A stretch of DNA of 64,000 nt from a virus (Duplodnaviria; Caudoviricetes), in the IMG/VR virus record IMGVR_UViG_3300042402_003952. The stretch is one strand, 5' to 3'. The position numbers and the translations under genes were made by a program. Shown piece by piece: positions 647 to 35,454 of this stretch. The notes beneath the pieces are model-generated. The model saw only the letters and a list, made by a program, of their open reading frames with translations. It was not told the DNA's origin and did not search any database. The first letter of the stretch is position 1; the number at the start of each line of letters is the position of its first letter.

Positions 647-705
647 AAATAGGTAAACAAATGTTACGAGTCTCTCATAACTCTTAACATTGTTAAACAC
701 CCATT

Positions 706-805
706 AACCGAGACCTATGGGGTGTATAAATTACGTCTCTCATATCTTCTCTAGGGGTGAGAAGAAATATTGAACCCTGTTCGTCCCCACGAACTCTTAC
801 TTAAC
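706..805 (+). ncRNA. structured psbA 5' leader resembling the PhotoRC-II RNA motif
   Basis: ACCGAGACCTATGGGGTGT...ACGTCTCT pairing, TCTTCTC..GAGAAGA hairpin and CTCTTAC before the start codon match my recollection of the cyanophage psbA leader motif; not checked against Rfam. Confidence 0.55.
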
Positions 806-817
806 CCTTTTTCAAAT

Positions 818-3191
818 ATGACTGCTTCAATCGCTTCACGCCGTTCTGGCGAAAACCTCTGGGAACAATTCTGTTCCTGGGTAACTTCAACCGATAATAG
901 ACTGTATGTTGGTTGGTTCGGAGTCCTTATGATTCCTTGCCTTCTTGCTGCTACAACTTGTTTTATTATCGCTTTCATCGGTGCTCCCCCTGTAGACATA
1001 GACGGTATCCGTGAACCCGTTGCTGGTTCACTAATGTATGGAAACAACATCATCTCTGGTGCTGTTATTCCAAGTTCTAATGCCATTGGATTGCATTTTT
1101 ACAGCATCTGGGATGCTGCTTCTCTTGATGAGTGGCTTTATAAATAATATTGGGTCACTTTAAATCGGGTGAACTGCTGGAAAGCTAAGTTCTTTATGAA
1201 ACACAAACATCACCTTACTCCAAAATATCTTGGTGGTTCTAACGAATCCCAAAATCTTGTAGAAGTTTCTACAACTCAACACGCTATGTTTCATTATTGT
1301 AACTGGCGTCTTTGGGGAAACGAAGAAGATAAGATTGCTTGGAAAGCACTTGCAGGATACTCTAAAAAAGAGGAAATAATTCATCAAGTTATTTCTCTTG
1401 CAGGTAAAAGAGGTGGTAAGGTTGCAAAAGAAAGCGGACAACTTCGGTCTGCTGCTCTTAAACAACCAAGAAGTGTAAGGCAAAAGATTGGTAAAAATCT
1501 TATCAACTATGCCTACAAAAATCCAAAGAATGCAACACAAGAAACTCTTACTAATAGAAAATACAGTAAAGTATTTCACATTTATGAAAAACTAACTGAA
1601 AGGACTATTGGTAATCATCTTGGGGATGTAGTTTTTAATCCAGAAGAAGATAAAACACTCAAAACTGTTTGTTCTATTATTCTGGAAAAATATGGGGTAA
1701 AAGTTTATCCTTCACATCTTAATAGTGTTGCTAATGGAAATAGACTTTTAACAAGTGGTATTTCTTGTAGTTGGATTTTAGAGAATATGCCAATCAGCAT
1801 CCAAGCCACAGACGATACTTCTGTGGAAGGTTCAGAGACTACTGGGTTCAACAAGCGTGTTGAGTAATACCAGATTAGCGCCCGACATCTTATAAAAAAT
1901 AAGATGAAGATATAGTCCAGTCCATATGGAAACATATGGTTCCCCCGACTGCTATAATGGGGGTCCTTTCCAACTTGTTGTCTTCCACTTCCTCATCGGC
2001 ATCTACTGCTATATGGGTCGTGAATGGGAACTCTCTTACCGTCTAGGTATGCGCCCTTGGATTATGGTTGCTTATAGCGCACCTGTTGCTGCTGCGAGTG
2101 CTGTATTCCTGGTCTATCCTTTCGGTCAAGGTTCTTTCTCTGATGCGATGCCTCTTGGTATCTCTGGTACATTCAACTACATGCTTGTATTCCAGGCAGA
2201 GCACAACATCCTGATGCACCCCTTCCACATGCTTGGAGTTGCTGGTGTCTTCGGTGGTTCTCTTTTCTCTGCTATGCACGGATCTCTTGTCACCTCTAGT
2301 CTTGTACGTGAGACTACAGAAAATGAGTCACAGAACTACGGATACAAGTTCGGACAAGAAGAAGAAACCTACAACATTGTAGCTGCTCATGGTTATTTTG
2401 GTCGCCTTATCTTCCAATATGCTTCCTTCAATAACTCACGTTCACTTCACTTCTTCCTTGCTGCTTGGCCCGTTGTAGGCATCTGGTTCACTGCTCTTGG
2501 TGTTTCTACAATGGCTTTTAACCTCAATCGTCGGGGTCCCGTCTTAGCAATTTGACGGTAAACATCGGGTGAACTGCTGGAAGCCCTCCATAAATGGGTA
2601 ATCAGCATCCAAGTCCAAAGTACACTTTGGAAAGGTTCAGAGACTACCTGAGGAGTTCAGTCTCCTTAATAACAGGAATAAGTGCCCGACATCCTAAATG
2701 GATGAAGATATAGTCCACTCCTTAAAGATGGTAAATTTAAGGGTTCAGTGCAACGGTTTTAATTTCAATCAGTCCATCATTGACTCACAAGGTCGTGTCC
2801 TTAATACTTGGGCAGATGTACTGAATCGTGCAGGTCTCGGAATGGAGGTCATGCATGAACGGAACGCTAGATTTGTTGGTGTTCTTGCTTAGGAATAAGC
2901 ATTAGTAAAATCGGGTTAAACGGGGAAACTCTCTATGAGACAATCCCGTACCAAGTCAGAAAGGGTTTAAGTTTTCTGAAAGGTCTAACGACTAGATGGT
3001 GAGTCCCAACAATAATCCATCCACGAATGCCCGACATCCAGAACGGATGAAGAGATAGTCTGAACTTACTAGTGATAGTAAGAAGTAGAGGATAAAGAAC
3101 CACTACGATAACAAAATTGCACAACTTCCCACTTGACCTTGCCGCAGCAGAAGCAACACCAGTTGCTCTTACTGCTCCCGCAATCGGTTGA
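818..3191 (+). CDS. psbA: photosystem II D1 protein; spliced exons 818-1137, 1952-2524, 2751-2868, 3120-3191 (360 aa)
   Basis: Exons join to 1083 nt giving intact D1 (DEWL|YNGG, AFNL|NGFNF, HERNA|HNFPLDLA). Each 5' exon ends in T and each intron ends in G. Confidence 0.97.
1139..1146 (+). promoter_or_regulatory. T4-type late promoter TATAAATA inside the 5' end of intron 1
   Basis: Exact T4 late consensus 50 nt upstream of the HEG ATG at 1196. Confidence 0.55.
1196..1867 (+). CDS. intron-encoded HNH homing endonuclease
   Basis: [33 protein letters not shown]-type motif; ATG 1196 is preferred over the track's GTG 1169, which lies in the intron core. Confidence 0.85.
   Translation: MKHKHHLTPKYLGGSNESQNLVEVSTTQHAMFHYCNWRLWGNEEDKIAWKALAGYSKKEEIIHQVISLAGKRGGKVAKESGQLRSAALKQPRSVRQKIGKNLINYAYKNPKNATQETLTNRKYSKVFHIYEKLTERTIGNHLGDVVFNPEEDKTLKTVCSIILEKYGVKVYPSHLNSVANGNRLLTSGISCSWILENMPISIQATDDTSVEGSETTGFNKRVE
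2525..2750 (+). mobile_element. group I intron 2 in psbA (226 nt, ORF-less)
   Basis: Core nearly identical to intron 1 (ATCGGGTGAACTGCTGGAA, AATCAGCATCCAAG, GGTTCAGAGACTAC, GAAGATATAGTCC); inserted in a Leu codon CT^C. Confidence 0.95.
2869..3119 (+). mobile_element. group I intron 3 in psbA (251 nt, ORF-less)
   Basis: AAATCGGGTTAAACGGGGAAAC, AATCCCGTACCAAG, GGTCTAACGACTAG, GAAGAGATAGTCTG; IGS GGTGTTCT pairs exon GGAACGCT; terminal G at 3119. Confidence 0.95.
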
Positions 3192-3197
3192 TATAAT

Positions 3198-3225
3198 GAG
3201 AGACCCTTTACGGGTCTCTTTTTTT
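3198..3225 (+). terminator. intrinsic terminator after psbA
   Basis: GAGACCC stem / GGGTCTC followed by a T run. Confidence 0.85.
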
Positions 3226-3278
3226 ATGCTATAATGGAGTTTAAGATTTTATAAATAGTTAAAAGATTAAACACCATA

Positions 3279-3800
3279 ATGAGAACCACGAAGATTTGTA
3301 GAACCTGCACACAAGAACTTCCTATCTCTGATTTTAGAGAAGGTCGTAGAAGATGTATTAGGTGTGAAGAAAAAACCTATGCAGAAAATTGGGCAAGTAA
3401 AACTCACATTACTTGCAACAAGTGTGGTTTAGAAAAACTTATTTCTGAATATTATAAAGGTCATAAGAGGTGTAAGGATTGTTACAGTAAAGACTATAAA
3501 GACAAAAAACCTTCTTATGATGATAAGAAAGACTATATGTTAAAGTATACTTATGGGCAGGATTTTGGATTAACTGAATATCAAAATCTTTTGCAGGAAC
3601 AGAATGAAGTATGTGCTATTTGTTTAAATCCAAATACTAATGGTAGGAAGGATAGTAATAATCTTTATGTAGACCACGATCATAATACTGGAAAGGTTCG
3701 TGGATTGTTGTGTAGTAACTGCAATAGAATGCTTGGACTAGTAGGAGATAATATCGGCACACTAACTAATGCAGTTAAATACTTACAAAAGCACCAATAA
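3279..3800 (+). CDS. free-standing endonuclease VII-family homing endonuclease (F-CphI-like)
   Basis: CAIC...LYVDHDHNTGKVRGLLCSNCN EndoVII motif, N-terminal CxxC repeats, located between psbA and psbD. Confidence 0.88.
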   Translation: MRTTKICRTCTQELPISDFREGRRRCIRCEEKTYAENWASKTHITCNKCGLEKLISEYYKGHKRCKDCYSKDYKDKKPSYDDKKDYMLKYTYGQDFGLTEYQNLLQEQNEVCAICLNPNTNGRKDSNNLYVDHDHNTGKVRGLLCSNCNRMLGLVGDNIGTLTNAVKYLQKHQ

Positions 3801-3991: not shown

Positions 3992-5053
3992 ATGACTTCT
4001 TCAACACTTTCGCAACCTATTTCACAACGAGGATGGTTTGATGTCCTGGATGACTGGCTTAAACGAGATCGCTTTGTATTTGTGGGTTGGTCTGGACTAT
4101 TACTTTTTCCCACTGCTTATCTTGCTCTTGGTGGTTGGCTTACTGGGACGACTTTCGTTACGAGTTGGTATACTCACGGGTTGGCAAGTTCCTATCTTGA
4201 GGGTGCAAACTTTCTTACTGCAGCAGTTAGTACTCCAGCAGATGCTATGGGTCATTCTCTTCTTCTACTTTGGGGTCCTGAGTCTCAAGGGGATATCATC
4301 AGGTGGTTCCAACTTGGGGGACTCTGGACTTTTGTGGCGCTCCACGGATCTTTCGCTCTGATTGGATTTATGCTTCGCCAGTTTGAGATTGCACGACTGG
4401 TCGGTATTCGTCCTTATAACGCAATCGCATTCTCTGGTCCTATTGCAGTATTCGTTTCTGTATTCCTTATGTATCCACTGGGACAATCCAGTTGGTTCTT
4501 TGCACCATCTTTTGGTGTTGCTGCTATCTTCAGGTTCCTTCTGTTTCTGCAAGGTTTCCACAACTGGACCCTCAACCCTTTTCATATGATGGGAGTTGCT
4601 GGTATACTAGGAGGTGCTCTGCTATGTGCTATTCATGGTGCAACGGTTGAAAACACCCTCTACGAAGACGGAGACAAAGCAAACACTTTCAAAGGTTTTG
4701 AACCCACCCAAGAAGAAGAAACTTATTCAATGGTTACAGCGAATAGGTACTGGTCTCAAATTTTTGGTATCGCTTTTAGTAATAAGCGTTGGCTCCATTT
4801 CTTTATGTTGTTTGTACCTGTTATGGGTCTCTGGACATCTAGTATTGGAATTATTGGACTCGCTCTTAACCTTAGAGCATACGATTTCGTATCACAGGAA
4901 GTTCGTGCAGCAGAAGATCCAGAGTTTGAGACTTTCTACACAAAAAACATCCTTCTAAATGAAGGACTACGTGCTTGGATGGCACCAGTAGACCAACCTC
5001 ATGAGAACTTTGTATTTCCAGAAGAAGTTCTCCCTCGCGGAAATGCCCTTTAA
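3992..5053 (+). CDS. psbD: photosystem II D2 protein
   Basis: Full-length D2 ([14 protein letters not shown]...[10 protein letters not shown]), no intron. Confidence 0.99.
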
Positions 5054-5481: not shown

Positions 5482-6144
5482 ATGAAGATCTTTTTAGACA
5501 CAGCAGATGTTTCAATGATTAGTTCAGCATATGACACTGGACTATTGGATGGAGTCACTACAAATCCCACTTTAATTCTTAAAAGTGGCAGACAACTATT
5601 AGAAGTTATTGAAGAAATAACAAAGTCTTTTTCAAAACTAGAAAGTATTTCAGCAGAGGTTGTTGCTGATACTGCAGAAGAAATGCTTTCACGAGCACAT
5701 CAATATTACACAATCGCACCTGCAGTCACCATTAAGGTTCCCTGCACGGTAGAAGGACTTAAGGCTTGTAAGTTTCTTTCCGATAAAGGAATTCAAGTCA
5801 ATGTAACCCTTGTGTTTTCTGTAGCACAGGCAATTCTTGCATCCAAAGCAGGTGCAACATTCATCTCACCATTCGTTGGTCGTTGGATGGACAATTCTAT
5901 TGATGGAATTGAACTCATCAAGAACATCCGTAAGGCATTTGATTACTCAGGAACATCTACACAAATTCTTGCAGCATCTCTTCGTGATGTGAGGCAAGTA
6001 GAACAATCTGCTCTTGCTGGTGCAAATGTCGTTACAATCCCTCCAGTTGTATTTTGGTCGATGTATAAGAACATTATGACTGATAAGGGTCTAGAACTCT
6101 TTCAGAAAGATTGGGATGATGTTATTAAATCCGCAGGAAAATGA
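5482..6144 (+). CDS. talC: transaldolase, TalC type
   Basis: MKIFLDTAD, GVTTNPTL, IKVP, VNVTLVFS, SPFVGR motifs; start moved to ATG 5482. Confidence 0.95.
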   Translation: MKIFLDTADVSMISSAYDTGLLDGVTTNPTLILKSGRQLLEVIEEITKSFSKLESISAEVVADTAEEMLSRAHQYYTIAPAVTIKVPCTVEGLKACKFLSDKGIQVNVTLVFSVAQAILASKAGATFISPFVGRWMDNSIDGIELIKNIRKAFDYSGTSTQILAASLRDVRQVEQSALAGANVVTIPPVVFWSMYKNIMTDKGLELFQKDWDDVIKSAGK

Positions 6145-10179: not shown

Positions 10180-10242
10180 GTTTTGTATCTTATTTTACAA
10201 AAAAATTTGCATATATAGATCGATGGGTCTATAATGACCTTA

Positions 10243-10337
10243 CGTTCATCCCAATGGGACGGAAGTAAGCCGACGCGGAACGGATCGTTCATTCGCTATT
10301 CGCAAATAGCGAACGCAAACGCCGACTGAAGGAACGC
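10243..10337 (+). ncRNA. tandem glutamine riboswitch aptamers (glnA / Downstream-peptide class)
   Basis: Two CGTTCA...GGAACG units (10243-10282, 10286-10336), each with a closing hairpin and a CGGAAGTA or CGCA junction, directly upstream of a DUF4278-like ORF. Confidence 0.8.
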
Positions 10338-35381: not shown

Positions 35382-35454
35382 GCTCCTAAAGCATTTAGTG
35401 GCGATGTACCTGACTTGTAATCAGGAGAGGATGGTTCAATTCCGTCTGGGAGCT
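35382..35454 (+). tRNA. trnT: tRNA-Thr(UGU)
   Basis: GCTCCTA/TGGGAGC acceptor, CCTGA-CTTGTAA-TCAGG anticodon arm, GATGG-TTCAATT-CCGTC T arm. Confidence 0.9.

Follow-up and report, generated by a model that had tools for sequence, protein, structure and literature searches.

Three group I introns in the psbA gene of an uncultured freshwater cyanophage

The subject of this analysis is the psbA gene of an uncultured virus (IMG/VR record IMGVR_UViG_3300042402_003952; Duplodnaviria, Caudoviricetes), located in a stretch of 64,000 nucleotides (nt) that was analysed at its full length and is called the window throughout. Spliced translation divides the gene (818-3191; all features of the psbA region given below lie on the + strand) into four exons and three group I introns, named I1, I2 and I3. 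When the introns are removed in silico, the exons join into 1083 nt that encode a D1 protein of 360 amino acids (aa) and a stop codon, with no internal stops. We consider it highly probable that this gene, carried by a freshwater T4-like cyanomyovirus, was invaded three separate times by mobile self-splicing group I introns, that I1 homes by means of its own HNH enzyme, and that P0002, a free-standing endonuclease encoded next to psbA, acts in the manner of the F-CphI enzyme of phage S-PM2.

The split gene and its ribozymes

Exon 1 (818-1137) encodes D1 residues 1-106 and two bases of codon 107, and is followed by exon 2 (1952-2524) and by the 118-nt exon 3 (2751-2868), these three being delimited by spliced translation and tblastn; exon 4 (3120-3191), delimited by spliced translation, includes the stop codon. 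The spliced D1 is full-length, is 92% identical to the uninterrupted D1 of the viral contig L003, and keeps the conserved C-terminal segment, which I3 splits between Ala337 and His338 (window numbering). L003 had also been considered as the window's own contig, as its exon-2 protein is 100% identical, but it proved to be an intron-less relative.

I1 (1138-1951, 814 nt) is inserted after nt 320 of the coding sequence (CDS), I2 (2525-2750, 226 nt) after nt 893, and I3 (2869-3119, 251 nt) after nt 1011; neither I2 nor I3 contains an open reading frame (ORF). The whole window was scanned with the Rfam covariance model RF00028 (Intron_gpI, gathering score 50), which gave 80.3 bits for I2 (2515-2742), 67.2 bits for I3 (2859-3082) and 51.8 bits for the 3' core of I1 (1674-1939), i.e. 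all three are above the gathering score, and no further matches were found in the 64 kb. The score of I1 is low because an ORF of about 580 nt interrupts its P5 loop. At each of the three pairs of junctions (1137/1138 and 1951/1952, 2524/2525 and 2750/2751, 2868/2869 and 3119/3120) the last base of the 5' exon is U and that of the intron is G. Alternative cuts that leave the mRNA unchanged are available only for I2, and there the cut given here is the only one that satisfies the U/G rule. The internal guide sequence (IGS) of each intron forms a P1 helix with a U.G wobble at the splice site: 9 bp in I1 (IGS 1152-1160, U1137.G1153), 5 bp in I2 (IGS 2533-2537, U2524.G2534) and 10 bp in I3 (IGS 2876-2885, U2868.G2878). 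The claim of a preliminary description of this DNA, that the gene contains three complete ribozymes with correct junctions whose removal restores an intact D1, is thus borne out.

The predicted structures are also reflected in the pattern of substitutions among related introns. Homologous introns were collected from IMG/VR contigs and GenBank phages and aligned by family; I1 is covered via the alignment of the I2 family and via its homology to an intron of contig L091. Compensatory changes were found in 21 of the 61 predicted pairs of the I3 family, which occupies sites 995 and 1011, and in 18 of 41 pairs of the I2 family; taken over both families they fall in P2, P3, P6, P7, P8 and P9. The I2 family takes in the S-PM2 intron as well as introns at sites 320, 753, 893, 1005 and 1014, the core of I2 itself being about 79-83% identical to the S-PM2 intron family. 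Judged by these sequence features, I1, I2 and I3 are bona fide group I introns, and they are very probably active in splicing and recently mobile.

The architecture of I1 can be understood from its relatives. It consists of a ribozyme of about 228 nt with an endonuclease insert of about 580 nt in the P5 loop, and an ORF-less intron of 228 nt occupies the same site in contigs L091 and L103, where RF00028 scores it at 104.9 bits. This short intron aligns with the first 60 nt (86%) and the last 176 nt (92%) of I1, so that site 320 holds both ORF-less and ORF-containing forms among the relatives.

Among 50 newly fetched loci with the I3-family core, the core lies inside the mapped psbA in 49, and in the 50th the mapped psbA ended before it. 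A scan of prokaryote genomes with this core returned just two short contigs, both of them psbA fragments binned into metagenome-assembled genomes (MAGs). These two, L175 (RFXU01000325.1) and L176 (CAZRFN010000198.1), are 1.3-1.7 kb long, carry intron-bearing psbA fragments and were assigned to Flavobacteriaceae and Acidibacter MAGs, respectively; most likely they are mis-binned cyanophage DNA. As a separate observation, part of I3 gives short matches of at least 99% identity in twelve Pseudomonas phage records among the GenBank phages, and its 3' core is about 80% identical to many introns of Streptococcus, Staphylococcus and Clostridium phages.

If the introns work as their structures predict, exogenous guanosine would attack the phosphodiester bond 3' of the exon U that is paired with the IGS, and the terminal G of the intron would then direct exon ligation. 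After three such reactions the four exons would form an mRNA that encodes a normal D1 of 360 aa.

Public RNA data contain hints of such splicing. We compared the contigs of three metatranscriptome runs and one DNA run with positions 700-3300 of the window; the intron regions are thinly covered in the RNA runs, and neither uncovered parts nor differences in contig depth were given any weight. In RNA-library contigs from two studies position 1137 is joined exactly to position 1952, i.e. at the predicted I1 splice junction. The flanks of these contigs match the exon tract that travels with I1 (see below), with one other letter in 89, on the exon-1 side, and the best-matching DNA run contains the intron-containing form only. 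A hint of a different kind is found for the I3 family. Excised group I introns cyclise when the terminal G attacks after a U near the 5' end, and one RNA contig of 284 nt (run X16, corresponding to window positions 2873-3098) follows the 3' portion of an I3-family intron as far as the terminal G and continues directly at intron nt 5, which fits such cyclisation. The 3' end of this contig matches I3-family members of 258 nt, and its 284 nt exceed a circle of 254 nt (258 minus 4) by 30, as would be the case for an assembly with 31-letter words. The depth of I3-like RNA in the same run reaches 392. The contig suggests a circular intron RNA of 254 nt.

Mobility and the two endonucleases

All the insertion sites are polymorphic, i.e. 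occupied in some relatives and empty in others, and the introns of the window are much more similar to their counterparts than are the exons around them. The most extreme case is I1, which shows a single mismatch in 814 nt to the site-320 intron of viral contig L039, while exon 1 and exon 2 of the two genes are 84.1% and 88.5% identical, respectively. Next to the intron there is no mismatch at all, over 53 nt on the exon-1 side and 24 nt on the exon-2 side. This pattern suggests recent endonuclease-driven homing with a short co-conversion tract. The intron set of L039, at sites 320 and 1005, otherwise differs from that of the window. I2 and I3 are 98.7% and 99.2% identical to their copies in L093 and L101, as against only about 80% identity for the 118-nt exon that they enclose. 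Near-identical introns in diverged exons mean that the introns share a more recent common ancestor than the gene that surrounds them. Exon 3 of the window and L093 differ at 24 of 118 nt but only at 3 of 39 residues, nearly all differences being synonymous, so this exon appears to be under selection at the protein level.

The insert of I1 encodes a putative homing endonuclease, P0004 (1196-1867, 223 aa), which matches phrog_655 'homing endonuclease' with an E-value of 1.3e-6; the final 30 or so codons overlap with the ribozyme core sequence. Over 53-100 aa at its N-terminus, P0004 is 36-66% identical to Synechococcus phage proteins annotated as HNH homing endonucleases, and residues 5-33 show an HH...N...H pattern. 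No Pfam family was found for P0004 at E <= 0.01, and a sequence search of the PDB returned chance matches only. The ORF in the first psbA intron of phage S-SRM01 is a distant homologue (25% identity, E 3e-9). A tblastn match of P0004 in phage S-CBWM1 is a free-standing endonuclease gene within a tRNA cluster and not the ORF of the psbA intron.

The second endonuclease gene begins 87 nt past the psbA stop codon. Its product, P0002 (3279-3800, 173 aa), belongs to Pfam PF02945 (Endonuclease_7, E 3.4e-22) and, when aligned with F-CphI of S-PM2, shows 42% identity and keeps the catalytic DHDH...R...NCN pattern of the Endonuclease VII (DHHRN) motif; an additional N-terminal CxxC...CxxC module is absent from F-CphI. 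Both endonuclease genes may have their own promoters. The motif TATAAATA, the consensus of T4 late promoters, occurs just 8 times in the 64-kb window, and two of these T4-type late-promoter-like copies are directly upstream of the two endonuclease ORFs: one within I1 (1139-1146), 50 nt upstream of the P0004 start codon, the other (3250-3257) 22 nt upstream of the P0002 ATG. This arrangement suggests that P0002 and P0004 would be expressed late and apart from psbA.

A tree was made of Endonuclease VII-type enzymes whose genes are located just downstream of psbA. The enzyme of the window falls in a clade of 17 rows (support 99/100), and F-CphI and six others form a second clade (96/99). The seven members of the F-CphI clade always adjoin a psbA with an intron at site 1005, and the 17 members of the window clade adjoin only psbA genes with an intron at site 893. 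In a sample of loci selected by the endonuclease the 893 intron was present in 26 of 28 assessable contigs, and 3 further contigs break off at or inside it. The two exceptions, L147 and L156, carry the window-type enzyme with an intron at 1005 only. We looked in these two for protective substitutions near nt 893; the variants found there also occur in endonuclease-free loci and are therefore uninformative.

A second association concerns the codon of Arg335, which ends at nt 1005. In the loci that bear a window-type enzyme and have an intron at 1005-1014 this codon is CGN in 11 cases out of 12 and AGR in the remaining one, whereas enzyme-bearing loci without an intron there have AGR in all 8 cases. 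CGN without an intron at these positions was seen in none of the enzyme-bearing loci as opposed to 33 endonuclease-free loci (Fisher p = 1.3e-6, uncorrected for phylogeny). At least four types of intron, at two sites, go together with CGN, so they were gained independently. Such an intron-or-AGR pattern is expected if P0002, like F-CphI, recognises the region of about nt 1000-1015 and immunity is acquired either by an intron or by recoding of the arginine. Since the window itself has CGG together with I3, we favour I3 as the intron that would protect its psbA, and the link with site 893 would then be a matter of lineage or hitch-hiking.

Put together, these observations lead to the following picture. 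I1 would spread by classical homing via its own HNH-type endonuclease, P0004, which is probably expressed from the late-promoter-like TATAAATA inside the intron. For the ORF-less I2 and I3 it is P0002 that most likely carries out 'collaborative homing', as is the case for F-CphI in S-PM2. Its cut would fall near codons 334-338 of psbA genes that have no intron; where nt 1005 or 1011 is followed by an intron, as by I3 in the window, the target would be split and the phage's own gene thus shielded; and repair of the break would copy the endonuclease gene together with nearby introns into the recipient.

A separate observation touches the same enzymes. In L007 (about 1744-1794) and L066 (about 5806-5847) there is a second copy of the last 14-17 psbA codons, which sits about 0.55 and 1.6 kb, respectively, downstream of an intron-less psbA, past the Endonuclease VII-type gene. 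This duplicated psbA end looks like a remnant of the insertion of an endonuclease cassette.

The pairing of P0002 with I3 has a competitor. P0002-type enzymes might instead be paired with I2; the two would then make up another collaborative-homing pair, whose target would be a new one, about 110 nt upstream of that of F-CphI. The strict division of the two clades between sites 893 and 1005 points in this direction, as does the frequency of the 893 intron in the enzyme-selected contigs when set against 2 of 78 unselected genes; moreover, eleven contigs with a window-type enzyme have no intron at 995-1014, and the extra N-terminal module of P0002 sets it apart from F-CphI. However, L147 and L156 have the enzyme and the 1005 intron without an 893 intron, the strict alternation between an intron at 1005-1014 and AGR fits a target near nt 1005 and not one near 893, and the 893 link could merely mark a phage lineage or hitch-hiking in conversion tracts. 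On balance we hold the pairing with I2 to be possible but rather doubtful. Another reading is that the introns are retained mainly for regulating D1 synthesis, for example by light-dependent splicing, and not solely as selfish mobile elements. Light influences the splicing of the S-PM2 psbA intron as well as that of the four psbA introns of Chlamydomonas (PMC5931967), and the phage introns are widespread and structurally conserved; on the other hand all sites are polymorphic, most of the nearest full-length psbA genes (65 of 78) are intron-less, and the introns are linked to homing endonucleases and bear signatures of co-conversion. We regard this view as unlikely. Finally, the three-intron gene could be an assembly chimera of two co-occurring phages joined in the conserved exon 2, or a decaying pseudogene that does not splice. 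It is true that psbA is a classic origin of chimeric metagenome assemblies, and that the public run X1 has no single contig across 2128-2511 in exon 2. Nevertheless, the X1 contigs are free of mismatches over 1042-2128 and 2511-3188 and have similar depths (17.3 and 16.1), exon 2 of the window is a match for neither that of L039 (88.5% identity) nor that of L093 (89.5%), and independent contigs carry 3, 4 and 8 introns. The exons are intact and conserved at the protein level, and the ribozyme cores are intact. We consider both forms of this explanation very improbable.

The favoured account, i.e. three invasions by mobile self-splicing introns with P0002 targeting the region shielded by I3, also has its weak points. 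The score of I1 is barely above the threshold, the ORF insert being the cause, and a simple search for P10 in the three introns gave no convincing pairing. The 5' half of exon 3 diverges from the first base after I2, and in its first 50 or so nt (2751-2800 as compared to L093:12037-12090) nearly every third codon position differs from L093 and L101, although I2 beside it is nearly identical. A co-conversion tract is thus absent on that side, which a simple model of co-conversion does not predict. The target of P0002 is predicted from co-occurrence, the Fisher tests overstate independence as the loci are interrelated, and the clade of the window enzyme is tied even closer to the 893 intron, so that its true partner could be I2. 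As to the RNA, the contigs joining 1137 to 1952 could derive from an intron-less allele with the same flanks, and the circular contig comes from a relative of about 94% identity and from a single run. Splicing in the phage of the window, like the targets of the two endonucleases and the time of their expression, is something that we infer, in contrast to the anatomy of the gene, the covariation, the polymorphism of the sites and the near-identity of introns in diverged exons, which the sequences show.

Multi-intron psbA genes in other phages

In order to place the gene, intron numbers were surveyed in 2 GenBank phages and about 200 IMG/VR loci, with sites given in window CDS numbering, mapped by local anchoring and checked by blastn. 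The insertion sites found are 182, 233, 279, 320, 502, 551/557, 573, 648, 753, 893, 995, 1005 (the S-PM2 site), 1011 and 1014, with further ones in the last sample. Thus about 15 sites have been mapped, and four of them (995, 1005, 1011 and 1014) lie within 20 nt. This agrees with the proposal of the preliminary description that phage psbA is an intron hot spot comparable to algal plastid psbA.

Intron-rich genes are a minority among the nearest relatives: the 78 full-length psbA genes nearest to exon 2 of the window, an unselected sample, include 65 without introns, 10 with one and 3 with two. Targeted searches found three introns in L087, L089 and L118, four in L091, L103 and L127, and more in others. 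Counting only Rfam matches above threshold, there are 8 introns in the single psbA of L090, 4 in L091, and 3 each in L087, L089 and L127. About 10 of the 25 full-length genes chosen by the I3-family core have at least three introns. In L209 (4937 and 5204) and L215 (11860 and 12127) a single psbA contains two I3-family cores at a distance of 267 nt; with both site 995 and site 1011 filled, a micro-exon of 16 nt is left between them.

Published isolates, too, have more psbA introns than their descriptions state. S-SRM01 (L001, NC_070963, 207378-209780) has three psbA introns by Rfam, at nt 279, 753 and 1005, and S-CBWM1 (L173, NC_048106, about 111231-113318) has, by tblastn only, two intron-sized psbA gaps of 778 and 230 nt, at about nt 655 and at nt 1014. 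In both cases the GenBank annotation gives psbA fragments or misses exons.

The rarity of three introns that was implied by the preliminary description does not hold, given the three introns of S-SRM01, the two of S-CBWM1 and the IMG/VR contigs with 3, 4 and at least 8. The gene is special only in a limited sense: a count of three would be new for cyanophage psbA in the literature but is ordinary in public sequence data. The idea of the same description that three splicing events could delay D1 repair is speculative. The survey of intron number per phage psbA that the preliminary description had proposed reveals a range from one to at least eight in relatives, and our literature searches found no paper that describes a multi-intron cyanophage psbA. 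By sequence comparison, the psbA of the window is an ordinary member of a large multi-intron psbA population of freshwater cyanophages. We lean slightly towards the view that, among the protein-coding genes known from viruses, psbA of freshwater T4-like cyanophages may have the highest density of introns, with about 15 sites, up to at least 8 introns in one gene and several intron lineages that have moved between sites. They would coexist with two endonuclease systems, i.e. intron-encoded HNH enzymes and free-standing Endonuclease VII-type enzymes of at least two clades, and immunity would apparently be gained either by an intron or by recoding of Arg335. No description of such a picture was found in the literature searched. 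The window provides a well-preserved example that unites all components of this picture.

It is useful to compare the locus with the systems that are already known. The psbA intron of S-PM2 and S-RSM88 and the free-standing F-CphI reportedly constitute a case of collaborative homing, as is said to have been described by Millard in 2004 and by Zeng, Bonocora and Shub in 2009. The window shares with these phages the host gene and an ORF-less intron of the I2 sequence family (core 79-83% identical), and with S-PM2 an Endonuclease VII-motif gene (42% identical) directly downstream of psbA and the order psbA-endonuclease-psbD. The differences are, however, considerable: S-PM2 has one intron, after CDS nt 1005, while the window has three (320, 893 and 1011) and none at 1005; the endonuclease of the window is in a separate clade of longer proteins (173 vs 142 aa); and I3 is from another intron family. 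For S-PM2 it is reported that the psbA intron is removed in vivo with good efficiency and in response to light (PMC5931967), and that F-CphI cuts intron-less psbA whereas the intron protects the phage's own gene (PMC6083498). S-SRM01, for which two 'partial psbA genes' and one intron were reported (PMC8557907), resembles the window in having three Rfam-detectable psbA introns, the first with a homologous endonuclease ORF, and an Endonuclease VII gene downstream; its sites (279, 753 and 1005) have none in common with those of the window. The two gaps of S-CBWM1 likewise stand against 320, 893 and 1011 in the window.

Multi-intron phage genes as such are already a known kind. A passage in PMC11878797 that cites Landthaler and Shub 1999 gives three group I introns for orf142 of Staphylococcus phage Twort, and polymerase and terminase genes of Bastillevirinae contain two or three group I introns (PMC11878797). 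In all of these one phage protein gene is split by several group I introns, some of them with homing endonucleases. The difference is that the host gene in the window is an auxiliary photosynthesis gene and not a replication or structural one, and that its relatives reach at least 8 introns. Outside the phages, the chloroplast psbA of Chlamydomonas reinhardtii has four group I introns (Erickson 1984, as cited in a passage of PMC5931967); here the same protein gene is a multi-intron group I hot spot, but in an organelle and not in a phage.

The window taken singly amounts to a good annotation and not to a new kind of element, and the picture at the level of the population is the more interesting one. 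The locus lies in an ecologically important phage gene and offers a natural system for the study of homing, of switching between intron sites, and of an arms race between endonuclease and target in which intron insertion and codon recoding are the two defences. There are practical consequences as well: the annotation of such genes needs correcting, as the GenBank records of S-SRM01 and S-CBWM1 with their 'partial psbA' pieces illustrate, and surveys that use psbA as a marker, by PCR or read mapping, can be skewed by introns. If it is true that splicing is light-responsive as in S-PM2, several introns could gate the supply of D1 during infection.

Surroundings of the psbA gene

The 5' leader of psbA contains a PhotoRC-II RNA motif (685-778; Rfam RF01717, 81.4 bits as compared to a gathering score of 39). 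PhotoRC-II is the usual motif of cyanophage psbA leaders, and Rfam detects it also 5' of psbA in S-SRM01 and several IMG/VR relatives. Between psbA and the endonuclease gene there is a terminator-like hairpin (3198-3230), a consensus match only, with a 9-bp stem that includes 5 GC pairs and is followed by a T run. The gene for D2, psbD, follows at 3992-5053 as an ORF of 353 aa, and the relatives show matches to a D1 paralogue at the equivalent position.

The public runs that contain the psbA stretch are lake and freshwater metagenomes. When 24 kb of the window were compared with GenBank phages by megablast, no close relative came up, the matches reaching at most about 75% identity over a few percent of the length, so the remainder of the window appears only distantly similar to T4-like cyanomyoviruses. 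The sole tRNA gene noted is at 35382-35454 (Rfam RF00005, 46.2 bits). In the related cyanophage contig L127 a wcaG RNA motif was detected at 10239-10334 on the - strand (RF01761, 83.2 bits).

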